A stretch of 64,000 nt of DNA, taken from a virus. The translations under genes and the position numbers were made by a program. Position 1 is the first letter of the stretch. Each line of letters opens with the position of its first letter. The notes beneath the pieces were generated by a model. The model was not told the DNA's origin. It made no database searches and saw only the letters and a program-made list of their open reading frames with translations. The DNA is taken from positions 1-64,000 of the IMG/VR virus record IMGVR_UViG_3300045988_163304; one strand, given 5' to 3'. Shown one piece after another: positions 1 to 64,000 of the stretch.

Positions 1-816
1 TTAAAATTAAATAATACTAATTATTTTGACATATATTTATTTTAGGCAATTGATAAAAAACGAATAGAATATTTTTCAAAATACCCATGGTTATACCCCT
101 TTTTTCTAAAGAAAAAAATGGAAGGAAAAATAAAATTTTTAGGATTTTCTTATCATGATTCTCCTGAAAATTTAGAATAGTTTATTACAAGTTATAAATG
201 GGACTGTTGTTAGCTATCTTTAAATTATTTTGAATGGTTTTTAGGCACTGCTAAAGAAGCATATTCTATTTGTGAAAAATATTCTATTCCTATTTTTTGT
301 ATGAACCCTTTACGTGGAGGTAATAATATTTACTAGTTACCATTAGAAATGCGAAAAAATTATTCTTAGCACGACCTTTTAGAATTATCAATTAATTTTT
401 TACAAAATTTACCCGCGGTTAAAATAATTTTATTGGGAGCTGAAAATCCCAGTTAGATTGAAGAGACGAGTAAAATATTTTTAAACCGGAAAGCATTAAC
501 TGATTTACGGGTACAAGAAATTATTAATTTAATTTAGATATATCAATCTGTATCTATTATTCATTGTACTCAATGTGGTTATTGTTATTTAAAATGTCCT
601 AAATCAATAAATATTCCTTAGTTATTTAAATTATATAATGCATTATTATTAAATCCTTTTGACTTATCTCAACAAAAAGAGTATAATTATTTAATAAGAG
701 ATGAAAAAAATGGACCATATACTTGTTTAAATTGCGGTCAATGTGAAAAAGCTTGTACTCAAAAATTAAATATTCGAAATATTTTACATACTCAAATTTT
801 AGAAAGAAGATGGTGA
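1..816 (+). CDS. Partial (5'-truncated) aldo/keto-reductase-like oxidoreductase with C-terminal 4Fe-4S ferredoxin-type Cys motifs; several in-frame TAG codons
   Basis: Frame 1 reads ...KIKFLGFSYHDSPENLE(TAG)... then CxxCxxCxxxC-type pairs (CTQCGYCYLKCP; CLNCGQCEKAC), ends RRW-TGA at 814-816. Not in ORF track because it runs off the window start and contains TAGs. Confidence 0.45.
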
Positions 817-820
817 TAGT

Positions 821-2262
821 GTGGGAAGAATTAATAAAATTTGTATTTTATCAGGATCAAATTGTAATTTAAGATGTTCTTTTTGTTTTTTATATAAGAA
901 TAAATCATATTAGCTATTTGATAAAGTGATTAAAACTGCTTGGGAAAATGGCGAATATATTAAAAATATTTAGCAAGTATTAAAAATAATGAATGTTGAT
1001 ACAGCAGAAATTAATACTATAGAAATTTGGGGAGGAGAACCTTCTTTAGGGATTCATTTAATTACTCCAAATTTAGAAATTTTATTAAATTTATTTCAAA
1101 ATTTAAACACTTTTTTCTTATCGACGAATTGGACTATAACCCCAATTAATGATTTAATAGATTTCATAAAAGAAATTGATTGTAAAAGTAATAAAAAATT
1201 TACTCTTAATCTTTAGTTGTCTATTGATGGTTTAAATGGAGAAATTAATAAACAAGGCCATCCAGGTTCTGTAGAAAAATATATAAAAAATATGGATTTA
1301 TTTTTTGATTAGATAAATAAAATAAAATTAAAACATATATAGATTAATTTCTTATTTCATCCAGTTATTTCTCAAGAAGTAATTTTAAAAGAATTAAATA
1401 CGTATGATAAAATTGCTAAATATTATAAAGAAATGTTGAATCTTATTCAAGAATTTGATAATAAAAATTTTAATAAAGCCTGTTTTTTCCCATTATCTTT
1501 TGGATTTCCTGCTATTGCAAGCCCTCATAATTCTACATTAGAAGAAGGTATGGCTTTAGCAAATTGTGTTAAATTATTTGAATATGTTAAACACACTATT
1601 ACTCCAGAAGATGATAATAATCCAGCTTATGCTACTATTGGAGGATATGAATAGTTTACTCATTTAGATAATGTGGGTTTAGAGTGTGGAGAAAGTGGAT
1701 ATAAAACATTTACTATTTTACCAGATGGAACTATTGCTGAATGTTCAAGTAGTTATATTTGTGATTTTGAAGAATATAATAAAGAATTAAAAGAAAATAA
1801 TGATTTAGAACAATATAAAATTTCCTAGATTCGCAAAAAACATTATTTTAATCCAATTAATGCAACTCCAGAAGAAATAGAGAATTATCATTGGTATGTT
1901 TCAGATGGTGGTATTAGAGGAGTATCAGCAATATATAGAAATTTAAATTTAGGTTTATTAGATGAGCTCGCATTATCTAAATAGATTCCATATAGTTTTC
2001 ACTTAGACCCTGAAAAAGCTTTATAGCATTTAACTAATACTTTAGTTTTATAGTATTGTACTAGAGATAATACAATAGAAACTCATAATCCTTTTATTTG
2101 TAGCCCATCAACTTTTAGAAAATATTTTAATGGTATAACTGATTTAATTTATGAGCAAGATAGCGCACAAATTAAATATAATATTAACCATTATGGTAAA
2201 AATTTAAACACCTTAAAAATGAATCGATTAGAAAGACTAATAGAAGATGAGGACAATCTATG
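821..2262 (+). CDS. Radical SAM enzyme with SPASM/twitch-like C-terminal Cys clusters; many in-frame TAG sense codons; start uncertain (GTG 821?)
   Basis: CNLRCSFCF (CxxxCxxC) at ~863-890; continuous frame 2 through at least 10 TAG codons; covers track ORFs 989-1216 and 1433-1654; ends at TGA 2260-2262 overlapping the next ATG. Confidence 0.55.
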
Positions 2263-3618
2263 AAAAATTTTTTAATGCAAGATAAAGTTTTATTAAATGA
2301 TATTTTAGAACGACATTATTATAGTAAATTTAGACAAGGAGAAGGACGTTTAGAATTATTTTTATTGGGTAAATGTAAAGCTAATTGTGAATATTGTTAT
2401 TTAAAAAAACATGGACAAGAATTATATCCCATAGAATTACAATCTAAAGAAAATATTTTAAAAAATTATGAAAAAGTATTAAAATGGTATACAAAGAATA
2501 AATTTCATAATTAGTTAGAGTTTTTTAGTGGAGAATGGATAACTACTGATTTATGTATTCCAATTTTTGATATTACATATAATATTTTTAATAATGCTTT
2601 GCCGAATGCACGCCCTCCTTTAATTATTTTTCCAGATAATATGTTATTTATTTATAATAAAGAATTAACAGATTATATTTAGAAACAAATTGATCGATTT
2701 AAAAAAGATTTAAATATTTCATTAATTTTTTCTGCTAGCGTAGATGGAAAAATTTGTGATTTTGGTCGGACTGAAGTTGATGATACATTTTACAAAAATT
2801 TAATTAATTTTTTAGATAAAAATGATTTTGGTATTCACCCTATGATTAGTTCAAATAATGTAAAATATTGGATTGATAATTATTTATGGTGGCAAGAGAA
2901 TGCTCCTAAAAAAATTGCTGATAATATGATGTCTTTAGAAGTAAGAGATGAAACTTGGACTACTGAATCTATTGCCGATTTAATTAAATTTTGTGATTTT
3001 GTTATTGATTATAGAATTAAAAATGTTTATAATAATGATTTAGTAAAATTTGCCGATAGTATTTTTACTGGCCAAGGCTTAAATGGTGGATTATATCAAC
3101 CTTTTGCTATTAAAAAAACTACCAATTTTACAAATAATCGAGATTTCATAGATTGCTCTTTTTCTTAGGTTTTACCAATTAGAATAGGAGATTTATCTAT
3201 TGGTTTGTGTCATCGGCTTTATTATGATGATTTAATTATTGGGCAATATAAATTAAATGATTAGGGTGAAATATTAGATTGTAACCCAAAAAATCTTTCT
3301 TTAATTATTCTTAAAACTCATTTACGCCGAAGTTGTTTGCCTCATTGTGAAAATTGTCAATTTGTTGGTATTTGTGAATTATTTTGTTTAGGAAATGCTT
3401 ATGAAAATTCTATGAATCCTCTTATCCCAATTAAAGAAAATTGTGATATGCAAAAAGCTAAATATTCTTTTTTACTTTATAAATATAATTCATTAGGTTT
3501 ATTTAATCAAAATATAATTGATAATACACATTTATCTCTCATTGATAAACAATATTTATTAGATTTAAAGGATAAAGTTTTAAATGGATTGGAGGTAAAT
3601 AATTGTGGAGTCTGTTGA
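2260..3618 (+). CDS. Second radical SAM/SPASM-domain enzyme (TAG-containing)
   Basis: CKANCEYCY radical-SAM motif near the N-terminus; C-terminal CENCQFVGICELFC (Cx2Cx5Cx3C SPASM motif); track ORFs 2260, 2842 and 3337 share one frame joined by TAG codons. Confidence 0.6.
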
Positions 3619-62125: not shown

Positions 62126-62821
62126 ATGGTTGATTTAACAGGTCAAGTTTTTAATAGATTAACTGTATTAAAATTAGACACAGAACGAAAATCAAAAAAT
62201 AAATATTGGATTTGTCAATGCTCTTGTGGAAATATTAAAAGTATTTAGCATAATAATTTAATATCAGGATTAACTTAGTCTTGTGGATGTTTACATAAAG
62301 AAAAAATTTCACATACCTTAATTGGTTAGAAATTTGGTAAATTAACAGTTATAAAAGACACTGGAAAACGAACCAATAATAGAGGTATTATTTGGGAATG
62401 CCAATGTGATTGTGGAAAAATAACTGAAGTATCTACAAATAATTTAAAATAGAATAATACTATGTCTTGTGGTTGTATGAAGCAATCTCACGGCGAATAT
62501 CTTATTGAGACTATTCTTAAAACAAATAATATTAAATATAAAAAAGAATATGTTTTTCTTGATTTATTATCCCCTAAAAATGGATACTTAAGATTTGATT
62601 TTGCTATTTTAGATGATTAGGATAATGTAAAAAAATTAATTGAGTATGATGGAGAAACACATTCAATAAATTATATGGGTGGATGGAATACAAAAGAAAA
62701 AATTAAATATCAATAGTTATGTGATACATTAAAAGATAATTATTGTGATACTCATAATATCCCATTAATTAGAGTTTCATATTTAAATAAAAGTAATGAA
62801 TTAGAAAAATTAATTCTATAA
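62126..62821 (+). CDS. Homing-endonuclease-like protein, paralog 3; six in-frame TAG
   Basis: ...KYWICQCSCGNIKSI(TAG)HNNLISGLT(TAG)SCGC...IIWECQCDCGKIT...RFDFAILDD...IEYDGETH...IPLIRVSY... Confidence 0.5.
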
Positions 62822-62832
62822 GGAGAATAATT

Positions 62833-62997
62833 ATGGAAAAAGCTGGTCAGATTGAATATAAGATGTCTAAGCGTCAAGCTACAGAGTTGATTAAAAGCTA
62901 TAAAGGGCCTCGTAAGAATCCACAGGATATTTTGATTGAATATGTAAATACTAATCTAAATCTTCTGCGTAAATGCGTGAAAGTGATTGTTGATTAA
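62833..62997 (+). CDS. Small hypothetical protein
   Basis: 54-aa ORF with RBS AAGGAGAATAATT. Confidence 0.3.
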   Translation: MEKAGQIEYKMSKRQATELIKSYKGPRKNPQDILIEYVNTNLNLLRKCVKVIVD

Positions 62998-64000
62998 TGA
63001 TTGTATTCGACAAGTCAGAAATCCGGGAAAAACTTACTACCGATAATATTTATGACTTGTTGTTAGAATGGGGAGGCGATCCTGAGTATAATGAAACTGG
63101 GATCGTCTCTTCAACTATTTGTCATAATATGCCTGGTGAAGGTAGTAAAAAACTCTACTATTATGAAAATACTGGATTGTTTAAATGTTATACTGGATGC
63201 GATGCTACATTTGATGTATTTGAATTATGCACGAAAGTAATGCGCATTCAACATGAGCGAGAATTTGATTTAAATTCAGCAATTTTATGGGTAGCTCATC
63301 GTTTTGGTTTAGGCGGAACAATTCAAGAATTAGATGAAGCCAAAACTCTTGAAGATTGGAAAATTTTTAATGAATACAGTCGTATTCAAAATATTGAAAA
63401 GAAAACTAATCAAATAACATTAAAAACTTATGATGAAAAAATTTTAACAAGATTTAATTATAAAGTTCAATTAACACCTTGGTTAGATGAGGGTATTTCA
63501 CAAGAAGCATTAAATGCTGCTAAAATTGGTTTTTATCCAGGAGGCGACCAAATAACAATTCCACATTATGATATTGATGGACGGTTTATTGGCTTGCGTG
63601 GGCGGTCATTATGTAAAGAAGAGTGTGAATTATATGGAAAATATCGACCCATTCATTTAAATAATCAATGGTATAGCCATCCTCTTGGTATGAATTTATA
63701 TAACTTAAATCTGAGTAAAAATGTTATAAAGACATTTAAAAAAGCAATAGTATTTGAGGGAGAAAAATCTGTTTTAAAATATAAAACTTATTTTGGTCTT
63801 AATAATGATATATCTGTAGCATGTTGTGGTAGCAATTTATCTAGTCATCAAGTTCAATTATTATTAGATTGTGGTGTTGAAGAAATTATTATTGCATTCG
63901 ACAGACAGTTTAAAGAACTTGGTGATGATGAATTTAAACATCTTAAATTAAATTTATTAAAAGCAAGAAGTAAATTTAAAAATTACGCTACAATATCATT
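62998..64000 (+). CDS. DnaG-type DNA primase (CHC2 zinc finger plus Toprim), 3'-truncated at window end
   Basis: ...CHNMPGEGSKKLYYYENTGLFKCYTGC... zinc-binding motif; ...IVFEGEKS... Toprim; runs off the window. Confidence 0.55.

Follow-up and report, generated by a model that had tools for sequence, protein, structure and literature searches.

Probable use of genetic code 15, with TAG as glutamine and a phage-encoded amber-suppressor tRNA, in a ~200-kb phage genome

The stretch of DNA analyzed here, called the window throughout, comprises 64,000 nucleotides (positions 1 to 64,000 of the IMG/VR virus record IMGVR_UViG_3300045988_163304); the subject of this study is the codon TAG, found in frame in many of its genes, together with a tRNA gene of anticodon CUA, tRNA(CUA), at 16549–16619. 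The window is part of a phage genome of ~199.5 kb; an identical major-vault-like protein is encoded on a 199,479-bp ENA metagenome contig, where the public gene calls already translate through TAG (a GIY-YIG protein of 208 aa and a methylase of 233 aa). All recognisable genes lie on the + strand, to which the window coordinates below refer; the GC content varies from 23 to 43% and the GC skew is positive throughout. A tRNA array of 25 genes (ARAGORN), one of them with the anticodon CUA, extends from 5.4 to 21.3 kb. IMG/VR holds a large clade of relatives of ~190–200 kb from gut-type animal and human metagenomes. Clade loci were confirmed separately for three query proteins (12, 137 and 173 loci), and 172 of them, originating from many metagenomes, were retained as the set for codon comparison; an earlier, first set comprised 92 loci. 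At the DNA level, a megablast search with 18 kb of the window gave no match among GenBank phages.

With TAG taken as a sense codon, 95 in-frame TAGs are spread over 36 of the 80 genes called on the + strand. A sequence-only reading of the window had stated that many genes are continuous only if TAG is translated, and the Pfam matches bear this out. Indeed, with X placed at each TAG, single domains run across these codons in SHMT (residues 4–389), N6_N4_Mtase (22–226), PhoH (218–411), PG_binding_1 (196–253), Amidase_2 (293–444), GIY-YIG (twice) and Radical_SAM. The genes concerned include the endolysin (44457–46295; CHAP, PG_binding_1, Amidase_2 and SH3 domains) with four in-frame TAGs, the PIN-PhoH ATPase (43132–44385) with TAGs at 44236 and 44242, and a GIY-YIG homing endonuclease (10109–10894) with five, one of which, at 10163, falls in the YIG-Q-S core. 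TAG density is highest at the very beginning of the window (1–3618, GC 23.5%), where a gene for an Fe-S/aldo-keto reductase and two radical-SAM (twitch/SPASM-like) genes carry 8, 11 and 4 TAGs in their stop-to-stop open reading frames (ORFs); single genes hold up to 8–11 TAGs (989–2263, with 11 in the stop-to-stop ORF 770–2263). Over the window 16% of the Gln-type codons are TAG, a share that exceeds 50% in some genes. Transporters (SDF and FNT) and homing endonucleases (HNH, PD-(D/E)XK and further ones), both named in the sequence-only reading, were also identified among the window proteins; its tail-fibre label for 40645–42241 found no support, this region giving coiled-coil matches only.

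The effect of the genetic code on coding coverage was measured with a greedy, non-overlapping set of + strand genes, tRNAs being counted; raw six-frame ORF totals do not discriminate and were dropped because the removal of any stop inflates ORFs. Coverage amounts to 45.0 kb (70% of the window) under the standard code and to 53.7 kb (84%) with TAG as sense, which also yields fewer genes and raises the median length from 116 to 186 aa. The corresponding values are 46.0 kb (72%) with TGA as sense and 50.8 kb (79%) with TAA as sense, the ORFs then being more numerous and shorter. A gain of at least about 5–10% with TAG as sense, above that obtained with the other stops, was the coding-density criterion for code 15, and a gain of this kind is what was found. 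Termination was examined in the 79 complete genes: 59 end in TAA, 20 in TGA and none in TAG. Alignments to the 172 relatives contain 908 in-frame TAGs versus 4 TAA/TGA. Moreover, the base following the codon is T after 62% of the TAA/TGA stops, compared with 26% of the in-frame TAGs, which resemble sense codons in this respect (Fisher P = 3e-6). The proposal that TAA and TGA terminate thus stands. That of a genome-wide reassignment of TAG is to be retained insofar as TAG never terminates and 36 of the 80 genes hold it, and was overstated insofar as 44 genes are without TAG.

In order to determine which amino acid TAG encodes, all window proteins were aligned by tblastn to the related loci and the codon beneath each column was read. 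At window TAG positions the 172 loci have TAG in 221 cells and otherwise mostly Gln; among the 92 loci of the first set, the commonest sense partners of window TAGs are CAA (147 cells) and CAG (48). When partners are weighted per position, Q receives 18.5, K 7.0, N 6.5, E 4.8 and T 3.8. For each amino acid, the likelihood of this partner spectrum was computed from the substitutions observed for that amino acid in these alignments, giving log-likelihoods (natural log) of −154 for Q, −197 for K and −208 for N, so that Gln is ahead by about 43; with the first set the values were −100 for Q and −150 for K. The reverse test gave the same answer: of 282 positions with a TAG in relatives, 70 are Gln in the window, an 8.3-fold excess over expectation, compared with at most 1.7-fold for other residues. 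Individual sites agree with these figures. The PhoH TAG at residue 371 (44242) corresponds to the invariant Q of GDxxQxD, where all seven distant relatives carry Q, five close relatives carry TAG and the alignment with PDB entry 3b85 (GDi-tQvD) shows Q. The endolysin TAG at residue 234 (45156) lies at the F-Q of PG_binding_1, where four PDB structures have Q and the relatives have TAG or CAA. At TAG 10163 of the GIY-YIG core, the relatives have Q in 50 cases (CAA 47, CAG 3), TAG in 14 and another residue in 2. The last two sites had been put forward as diagnostic of Gln in the sequence-only reading and are so in the relatives; a third one, DIN-TAG-K at 16738, does face CAA in a paralogue, but relatives have N or G there, and it is weak evidence.

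The amber-suppressor tRNA with the anticodon CUA was likewise found where it had been proposed, ARAGORN placing it at 16549–16620 and the Rfam tRNA model RF00005 matching 16549–16619 with 55 bits. Its anticodon arm (CCUGA-CUCUAAA-UCAGG) and T-arm (GGUUCGAAUCC) are as described there, and the cloverleaf is canonical, with G18G19, a regular T-loop and a 5-bp anticodon stem; the fold of the tRNA alone is not significant (z = −1.8). The nucleotides at 1 and 72 are an unpaired U1·U72 (non-canonical in the Rfam alignment), the discriminator is G73 and no CCA is encoded; the gene thus displays C34, U35 and A36 together with an open 1:72 and G73. Since pairwise tRNA identity is too noisy for assigning an isotype, we used nhmmer profiles built from 576 clade tRNAs with the anticodon masked, which named 14 of 16 window tRNAs correctly. 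The tRNA(CUA) scores 28.9 bits with the Gln profile, compared with 22.1 bits for the next isotype. The only neighbours it has among GenBank phages are annotated as tRNA-Gln, and its acceptor stem (2–7/66–71) and G73 are identical to those of a clade tRNA-Gln(CUG) in one related locus (L171).

A mismatch at 1:72 occurs in 20 of 30 distinct CUA tRNAs of the clade, nearly all with G73, versus 7 of 383 other tRNAs (Fisher P = 4e-21). Judged from these genes, the unpaired 1:72 combined with G73 is a hallmark of the suppressors of the clade. In E. coli, glutaminyl-tRNA synthetase (GlnRS) recognizes C or U at position 34, U35, G36 and the discriminator G73, and it has to open the 1:72 pair, as reportedly described by Rould in 1989 and Jahn in 1991. 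By these E. coli rules, from which those of the host may differ, an open 1:72 could plausibly compensate for the lost G36 in recognition by GlnRS. The CUA anticodon alone also draws tRNAs to this enzyme, a tRNA-Trp(CUA) being charged by GlnRS (PMC2965240). In the unrelated code-15 phage phAss-1 (OQ749652), one of the two suppressors examined has U1·C72 and G73. The other is of a type also seen in some relatives of the window phage, namely CUA tRNAs of 88–95 nt with a long variable arm and a Gln-like acceptor stem (related loci L098, at 4567–4657, L102, L109, L119, L134, L137, L152 and L170; phAss-1, handled as L202, at 12442–12532). Further CUA tRNAs of the clade score best with Cys or Trp profiles. 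Comparison of these sequences suggests that amber suppressors had several independent origins. In the literature we found no description of the 1:72 mismatch as a hallmark or of the leader family treated below, an absence that is no proof of novelty.

Directly after C74 of tRNA(CUA) begins a candidate theta ribozyme, that is, a minimal self-cleaving ribozyme of the hepatitis delta virus (HDV)-like type (16621–16673), recognized by a descriptor scan. It lacks P4 and consists of nested P1, P2, P3 and P1.1 elements with a G1·U wobble, a 6-bp P1 and a 3-bp P3; the L3 loop reads UCCACGU, its CC being able to pair with the GG after P1, and the C-containing J4/2 (UUAAUACUAA) is followed by P2. A first descriptor that accepted a 7-bp P1 only missed the window copy and gave 59 matches versus 17 in shuffled sequences; the refined one gave 11 versus 1. 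Four of these 11 matches lie exactly at tRNA 3' ends, in the window (G1 = 16621) and in the related loci L095, L145 and L170, the criterion for theta ribozymes being a cleavage-site G no more than 5 nt to either side of such an end. Among five independent clade copies P1, P2 and P3 covary, partly by construction as the helices are imposed by our in-house descriptor; the motifs UCCNCGU in L3 and UAAYRCUAA in J4/2, which the scan did not require, are conserved. Neither an HDV family nor any other family of Rfam matches 16621–16673. The closest relatives present two forms of this junction. The first form encodes the CCA of the tRNA(CUA), with a leader-type element behind it (L094, L096, L097 and L099); in the second a theta ribozyme stands in place of the CCA (L095), and the window carries the ribozyme plus a GIY-YIG homing endonuclease gene at 16702–17328. 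This arrangement gives the ribozyme the appearance of a mobile element inserted where the tRNA ends. Theta ribozymes are a published family of minimal HDV-like ribozymes located at phage tRNA 3' ends; of these ribozymes, 20% are adjacent to tRNA-Sup genes of code-15 phages (Kienbeck et al., bioRxiv 10.1101/2023.06.13.544163). The window element shares with them the P4-less HDV-like fold, the G after the tRNA, the G1·U wobble, the 3-bp P3 and the CC/GG P1.1, as well as its position next to a tRNA-Sup(CUA) in a code-15 gut-type phage. It differs in that its membership is based on our own descriptor instead of the published one, and in that the predicted cleavage leaves a tRNA ending at C74 without CA, whereas the closest relatives devoid of the ribozyme encode the full CCA.

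On the 5' side, a perfect sigma-70-type promoter (TTGACA-17-TATAAT, 12/12) is located at 16433–16461, 88 nt upstream of the tRNA(CUA) 5' end. Six such perfect sites exist in the window versus 0.18 expected, and one of them precedes gyrB (47825). Between promoter and tRNA lies a structured leader, AAGGCUUG ... CCGCAAA ... UGAGCCUU-GU (16476–16539). Both the promoter and the RNA element had been proposed before and are upheld here. The fold of the leader alone is not significant (z = −1.45); its support is comparative. It belongs to a family of 60–130 nt with the scheme AAG-stem ... CAGCAA ... stem-CTT-GT, which has eight copies in the tRNA region of the window (5530–5598, 8123–8211, 9895–9964, 12165–12291, 15118–15245, 16476–16539, 19475–19558 and 20842–20907). 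Scanning of the clade loci yielded 149 copies on the + strand and 12 on the − strand, compared with 0–3 in shuffled sequences, and the family contains 70 distinct, mutually complementary (covarying) stems. A leader is found no more than 30 nt upstream of 22 of 42 CUA tRNAs versus 55 of 527 other tRNAs. Among tRNA species this enrichment is strongest for CUA, Leu-UAA and Gln-UUG. One long copy (12192–12297) resembles the Rfam model YrlA (RF02553; Y RNA-like, with a Ro-binding stem and a tRNA-like T-arm/D-arm module). Its T-arm and D-arm align to the model, and its 39.1 bits (E = 1e-5 in 16.5 kb) are the best score of the family, but the gathering threshold is 69 bits; the short leader in front of tRNA(CUA) matches neither YrlA nor any other Rfam family.

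The distribution of TAG among genes is uneven. If TAG were spread evenly over Gln codons, 32.3 ± 3.7 genes would be expected to lack it, compared with the 44 found (P = 0.0013). Two blocks are free of TAG: 23455–31503, encoding a DUF2828/DUF7788 protein, a major vault protein (MVP) homologue, a metallophosphatase and small proteins (0 TAG versus 70 CAA/CAG), and 35224–40527, encoding an RNA ligase, a Pnkp-like kinase, a phosphoesterase and a flotillin-like protein (0 TAG versus 57 CAA/CAG). Two replication modules are nearly so: 46779–52844 (aminotransferase, GyrB, RNase H and GyrA) has a single TAG in a 76-aa ORF, and 57796–62061 (AAA_24 and DnaB-like helicase) has one at codon 14 of 59994–60539; the primase also belongs to these TAG-free or nearly TAG-free replication genes. 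TAG avoidance is maintained across the clade, TAG accounting for 0 of 967 Gln-type codons in DUF2828, 1 of 840 in the MVP-like protein and 4 of 1049 in GyrA, as against 16% in PhoH, 18% in the endolysin, 30% in a holin-like protein and 20–32% in homing endonucleases. The two gene classes also differ in the use of the regular Gln codons: the share of CAG in CAR is 10% in TAG-containing and 48% in TAG-free genes (P = 2e-20), and in the former TAG makes up 29% of Gln-type codons.

Some products of the TAG-free blocks are noteworthy in themselves. The 831-aa homologue of the eukaryotic major vault protein (25155–27650) matches Pfam MVP_shoulder (2e-19) and Vault_3, and aligns with the PDB structure of MVP (4hl8_A, E = 6e-19) over residues 454–769. 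It adjoins the DUF2828/DUF7788 protein encoded upstream (23455–24984); both genes are TAG-free, relatively GC-rich and CAG-preferring, and they are present in 33–80 related loci. A kinship of the DUF2828 protein with TROVE/Ro60 received no support from Pfam (no TROVE match) or from PDB (no sequence match). A TAG-free gene set of RNA-repair type (35224–39063, 29166–29906 and 32518–33336) encodes an RNA ligase resembling DRB0094 and a kinase of the Pnkp-like type (AAA_33), together with two metallophosphoesterases and a nucleotidyltransferase (phrog_388); it might plausibly counter host tRNA nucleases or heal the tRNA ends cut by the ribozyme.

Taken together, we consider that this genome uses genetic code 15, in which TAG stands for glutamine, TAA and TGA alone terminate, and a phage-encoded tRNA(CUA) acts as decoder; from the sequence data we put the probability of this reading at roughly 93%. 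The decoder would be supplied by the phage itself, tRNA(CUA) being transcribed from a perfect promoter of the host type behind the structured leader. The theta ribozyme would free its 3' side, to which CCA would then be added, and the host would charge it with Gln, most likely by GlnRS in view of C34, U35, the unpaired 1:72 and G73, or alternatively through a non-discriminating GluRS and the amidotransferase GatCAB (ND-GluRS/GatCAB). The charged tRNA would outcompete release factor 1 (RF1) at UAG. Genes needed before the suppressor accumulates, presumably those for gyrase, helicase, primase, RNase H and the RNA-repair/vault-like block, are without TAG, so that unmodified host machinery could translate them. 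Those for the endolysin, the holin-like protein, PhoH, methylases, homing endonucleases, radical-SAM proteins and other AT-rich genes have TAG at 15–50% of Gln positions, and their translation would be completed only after the suppressor becomes active.

Several observations weigh against this reading or parts of it. Three or four TAGs close to gene ends, among them those at 13647, 43109 and 19926, which lie 3–9 codons ahead of the final stop, are ambiguous, and termination there is conceivable. A minority of TAG positions face mainly K, E, N, T or R in the relatives; such partners are expected at variable Gln sites, and some mis-insertion may contribute. As regards the tRNA, the margin of the Gln profile is modest (6.8 bits) with 2 of 16 controls misclassified, and the pairwise similarity of tRNA(CUA) to single Gln tRNAs does not exceed that to some Arg, Pro or Lys tRNAs. 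The window encodes no release factor, aminoacyl-tRNA synthetase (aaRS) or anti-RF1 gene among the genes of its 64 kb, ~134 kb of the genome lying beyond. The early and late timing is deduced from gene functions; because the promoter is of the same strong class as that of gyrB, the suppressor may be made from the start instead of acting as a late switch. Finally, TAG-containing genes are AT-richer, with a GC content at third codon positions of 0.19 versus 0.30 in TAG-free genes, and because of this the gene-class bias could be partly mutational (CAG to TAG) and not regulatory. Such drift from CAG to TAG where genes are AT-rich, and a selective pressure keeping TAG out of early genes, may both be at work.

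The features surrounding tRNA(CUA) also allow a bolder, tentative joint interpretation, which we rate as rather unlikely, namely that the suppressor is a purpose-built decoder gated by maturation rather than simply a mutated tRNA-Gln. Several CUA body types, in the clade and in one suppressor of the unrelated phAss-1, would have converged on an unpaired 1:72 and G73, making them GlnRS substrates despite the lost G36. The tRNA lies between the clade-specific leader, found ahead of half of all CUA tRNAs, and the candidate theta ribozyme, whose cleavage would leave a CCA-less end with a 2',3'-cyclic phosphate. The Pnkp-like kinase/phosphatase and the nucleotidyltransferase of the phage, both encoded without TAG, would heal this end, and the subsequent addition of CCA would time the translation of the TAG-containing lysis genes.

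Among the alternatives to a full reassignment, the one that survives best, although we regard it as improbable, is that TAG is a leaky stop, only partially suppressed, giving truncated and full-length products and acting as a translational attenuator instead of a genuine 21st sense codon. In its favour, RF1 is presumably retained by the host, the window showed no anti-RF1 function, many genes avoid TAG, and a model put forward with the theta ribozymes is concentration-dependent, the suppressor having to outcompete termination factors (bioRxiv 10.1101/2023.06.13.544163). Nevertheless, with 8–11 TAGs in one gene the amount of full-length product would be negligible unless suppression is efficient. 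The share of TAG among Gln-type codons and the position of TAGs in catalytic and structural cores, not at domain boundaries and never as the terminal stop, likewise fit a sense codon better.

That TAG is a sense codon for another residue (pyrrolysine, Lys, Glu, Trp or Ser) appears very unlikely. It would draw on the label "Pyl" given by ARAGORN to the tRNA from its anticodon, on K and E as the next commonest partners of TAG, on the presence of radical-SAM genes, on the suppressors of some relatives that fit Cys, Trp or Ser profiles best or have a long variable arm, and on the Trp and Ile minorities in published isotype predictions for phage tRNA-Sup. These points are outweighed by the lead of Gln by 43–50 log-likelihood units, by TAGs at positions of invariant Q and by the window tRNA(CUA) itself, which scores best as Gln. 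Concerning pyrrolysine in particular, tRNA-Pyl has a short D-loop, no G18G19 or T-loop consensus and a 6-bp anticodon stem, and the system needs pylS and pylBCD. We rejected a pyrrolysine system here: the cloverleaf of tRNA(CUA) is canonical, the radical-SAM proteins match twitch/SPASM maturases and not PylB, and no PylS-like domain was found among the window proteins.

The idea that the host itself uses code 15, mirrored by the phage with the tRNA as an accessory, was advanced early on for recoded phages (as cited in PMC10607447); it is highly improbable here, as conserved TAG-free replication and other modules are hard to explain if TAG were a normal sense codon of the host, surveys found the standard code in hosts of recoded phages (bioRxiv 10.1101/2021.08.26.457843), and the nearest bacterial homologues of a phage transporter come from ordinary Bacillota. 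The standard code, with TAGs as true stops and the split genes as pseudogenes, assembly errors or separate small genes, can practically be dismissed, for although ORFs lengthen somewhat upon removal of any stop and GenBank records of such phages are often annotated in this way (PMC10607447), single Pfam domains continue over TAGs, TAG is kept or exchanged with CAA/CAG in the 172 loci, with the near absence of TAA/TGA there, the base context is sense-like, TAG is not the last codon of any gene, the window carries a cognate tRNA(CUA) and the gain in coverage is TAG-specific.

Further features of the window concern its mobile elements and the remainder of the tRNA array. Genes of homing-endonuclease type are abundant and all TAG-rich, including GIY-YIG, HNH, PD-(D/E)XK and Cys-rich repeat nucleases (4047–4739, 10109–10894, 13101–13658, 16702–17328, 31641–32516, 54198–54764, 55459–56427 and 62126–62821), and several share a C-terminal DNA-binding tail, RKWC-x-YNLP. 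A split tRNA-Gln at 15436–15629 (Rfam tRNA, 43 bits; not called by ARAGORN), which the sequence-only reading had overlooked, has an insert of ~124 nt in its anticodon loop, its anticodon being UUG or CUG depending on the splice site, with A1:U72, G73 and an encoded CCA. The insert is closed by a CGAGAAA/UUUCUCG stem and does not reach the length typical of group I introns. An additional tRNA-like gene visible to Rfam only (35.8 bits) and other unusual tRNAs, a Phe tRNA with the anticodon AAA and a weak Glu(CUC) of 29 bits, occur in the region of 8049–8118, 8262–8334 and 7184–7261; degeneration or specialisation may account for these odd tRNAs around 7184–8334. Between genes of the tRNA region, 9024–9076 matches the type-P1 twister ribozyme (RF03160) with 41.2 bits (E = 3e-6 in 16.5 kb), a score that does not attain the gathering threshold of 67.2. 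Concerning the host, the nearest bacterial homologues of the transporter mentioned above are found on contigs of Bacillota metagenome-assembled genomes, with 52–58% identity, which is suggestive at best of a Bacillota host.

Genetic code 15 has been on record since 2014. It is used in gut phages that include the Jade, Sapphire and Agate clades of ~150–210 kb, crAss-like and Lak phages, where suppressor tRNAs and an enrichment of TAG in late and lysis genes were described (Borges et al., bioRxiv 10.1101/2021.08.26.457843). In crAss-like phages the reading of TAG as Gln was proven by metaproteomics in 2022 (PMC9523058); code 15 has also been surveyed in jumbo phages (PMC13037316), and the NCBI taxonomy has a "Caudoviricetes code 15 clade". 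The window phage resembles these recoded gut phages in its in-frame TAGs within conserved genes, its phage tRNA(CUA) and its sole terminators TAA and TGA, in the enrichment of TAG in lysis and non-replication genes with replication genes compatible with the standard code, and in its ~200-kb genome, large tRNA array, intron-bearing tRNA and relatives from gut-type metagenomes. It differs in having no RF2, aaRS or other "code-change" gene in the 64 kb of the window; the structural genes are located outside it. With phAss-1 (PMC10607447) it shares TAG as Gln, tRNA-Sup-CTA genes, a large portion of affected genes (~40% of the annotated ORFs in phAss-1) and a predicted Bacillota host, but the 136-kb genome of phAss-1 is unrelated and has no DNA similarity to the window (18 kb compared with GenBank phages). 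Like the E. coli supE-type suppressors, in which a tRNA-Gln changed from CUG to CUA, the window tRNA keeps C34, U35 and G73; the 1:72 pair is abolished (U·U), whereas it is a weak U1-A72 in E. coli. Furthermore, supE is a weak laboratory suppressor, while the window tRNA is supplied by a phage and belongs to a full reassignment, with a charging that is predicted from its sequence.

Code 15 in this genome is thus a known phage strategy and not a new one, of which the window is a new and well-resolved member; less familiar are the mismatch at 1:72 as a mark of these suppressors, the family of leaders and the joining of a CCA-less tRNA to a candidate theta ribozyme. The genome and ~170 or more IMG/VR relatives need translation table 15; under the standard table a third of the proteins, among them the endolysin, PhoH, SHMT, DNA ligase and methylases, come out truncated. 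The gene set of the phage is split into one part readable by a naive host and another readable only after the phage decoder is present, and this split is conserved by gene family across the clade. Features of the decoder such as its open 1:72 with G73, its lack of CCA, the ribozyme next to it and its leader provide handles on the timing of the code switch and on Gln identity.

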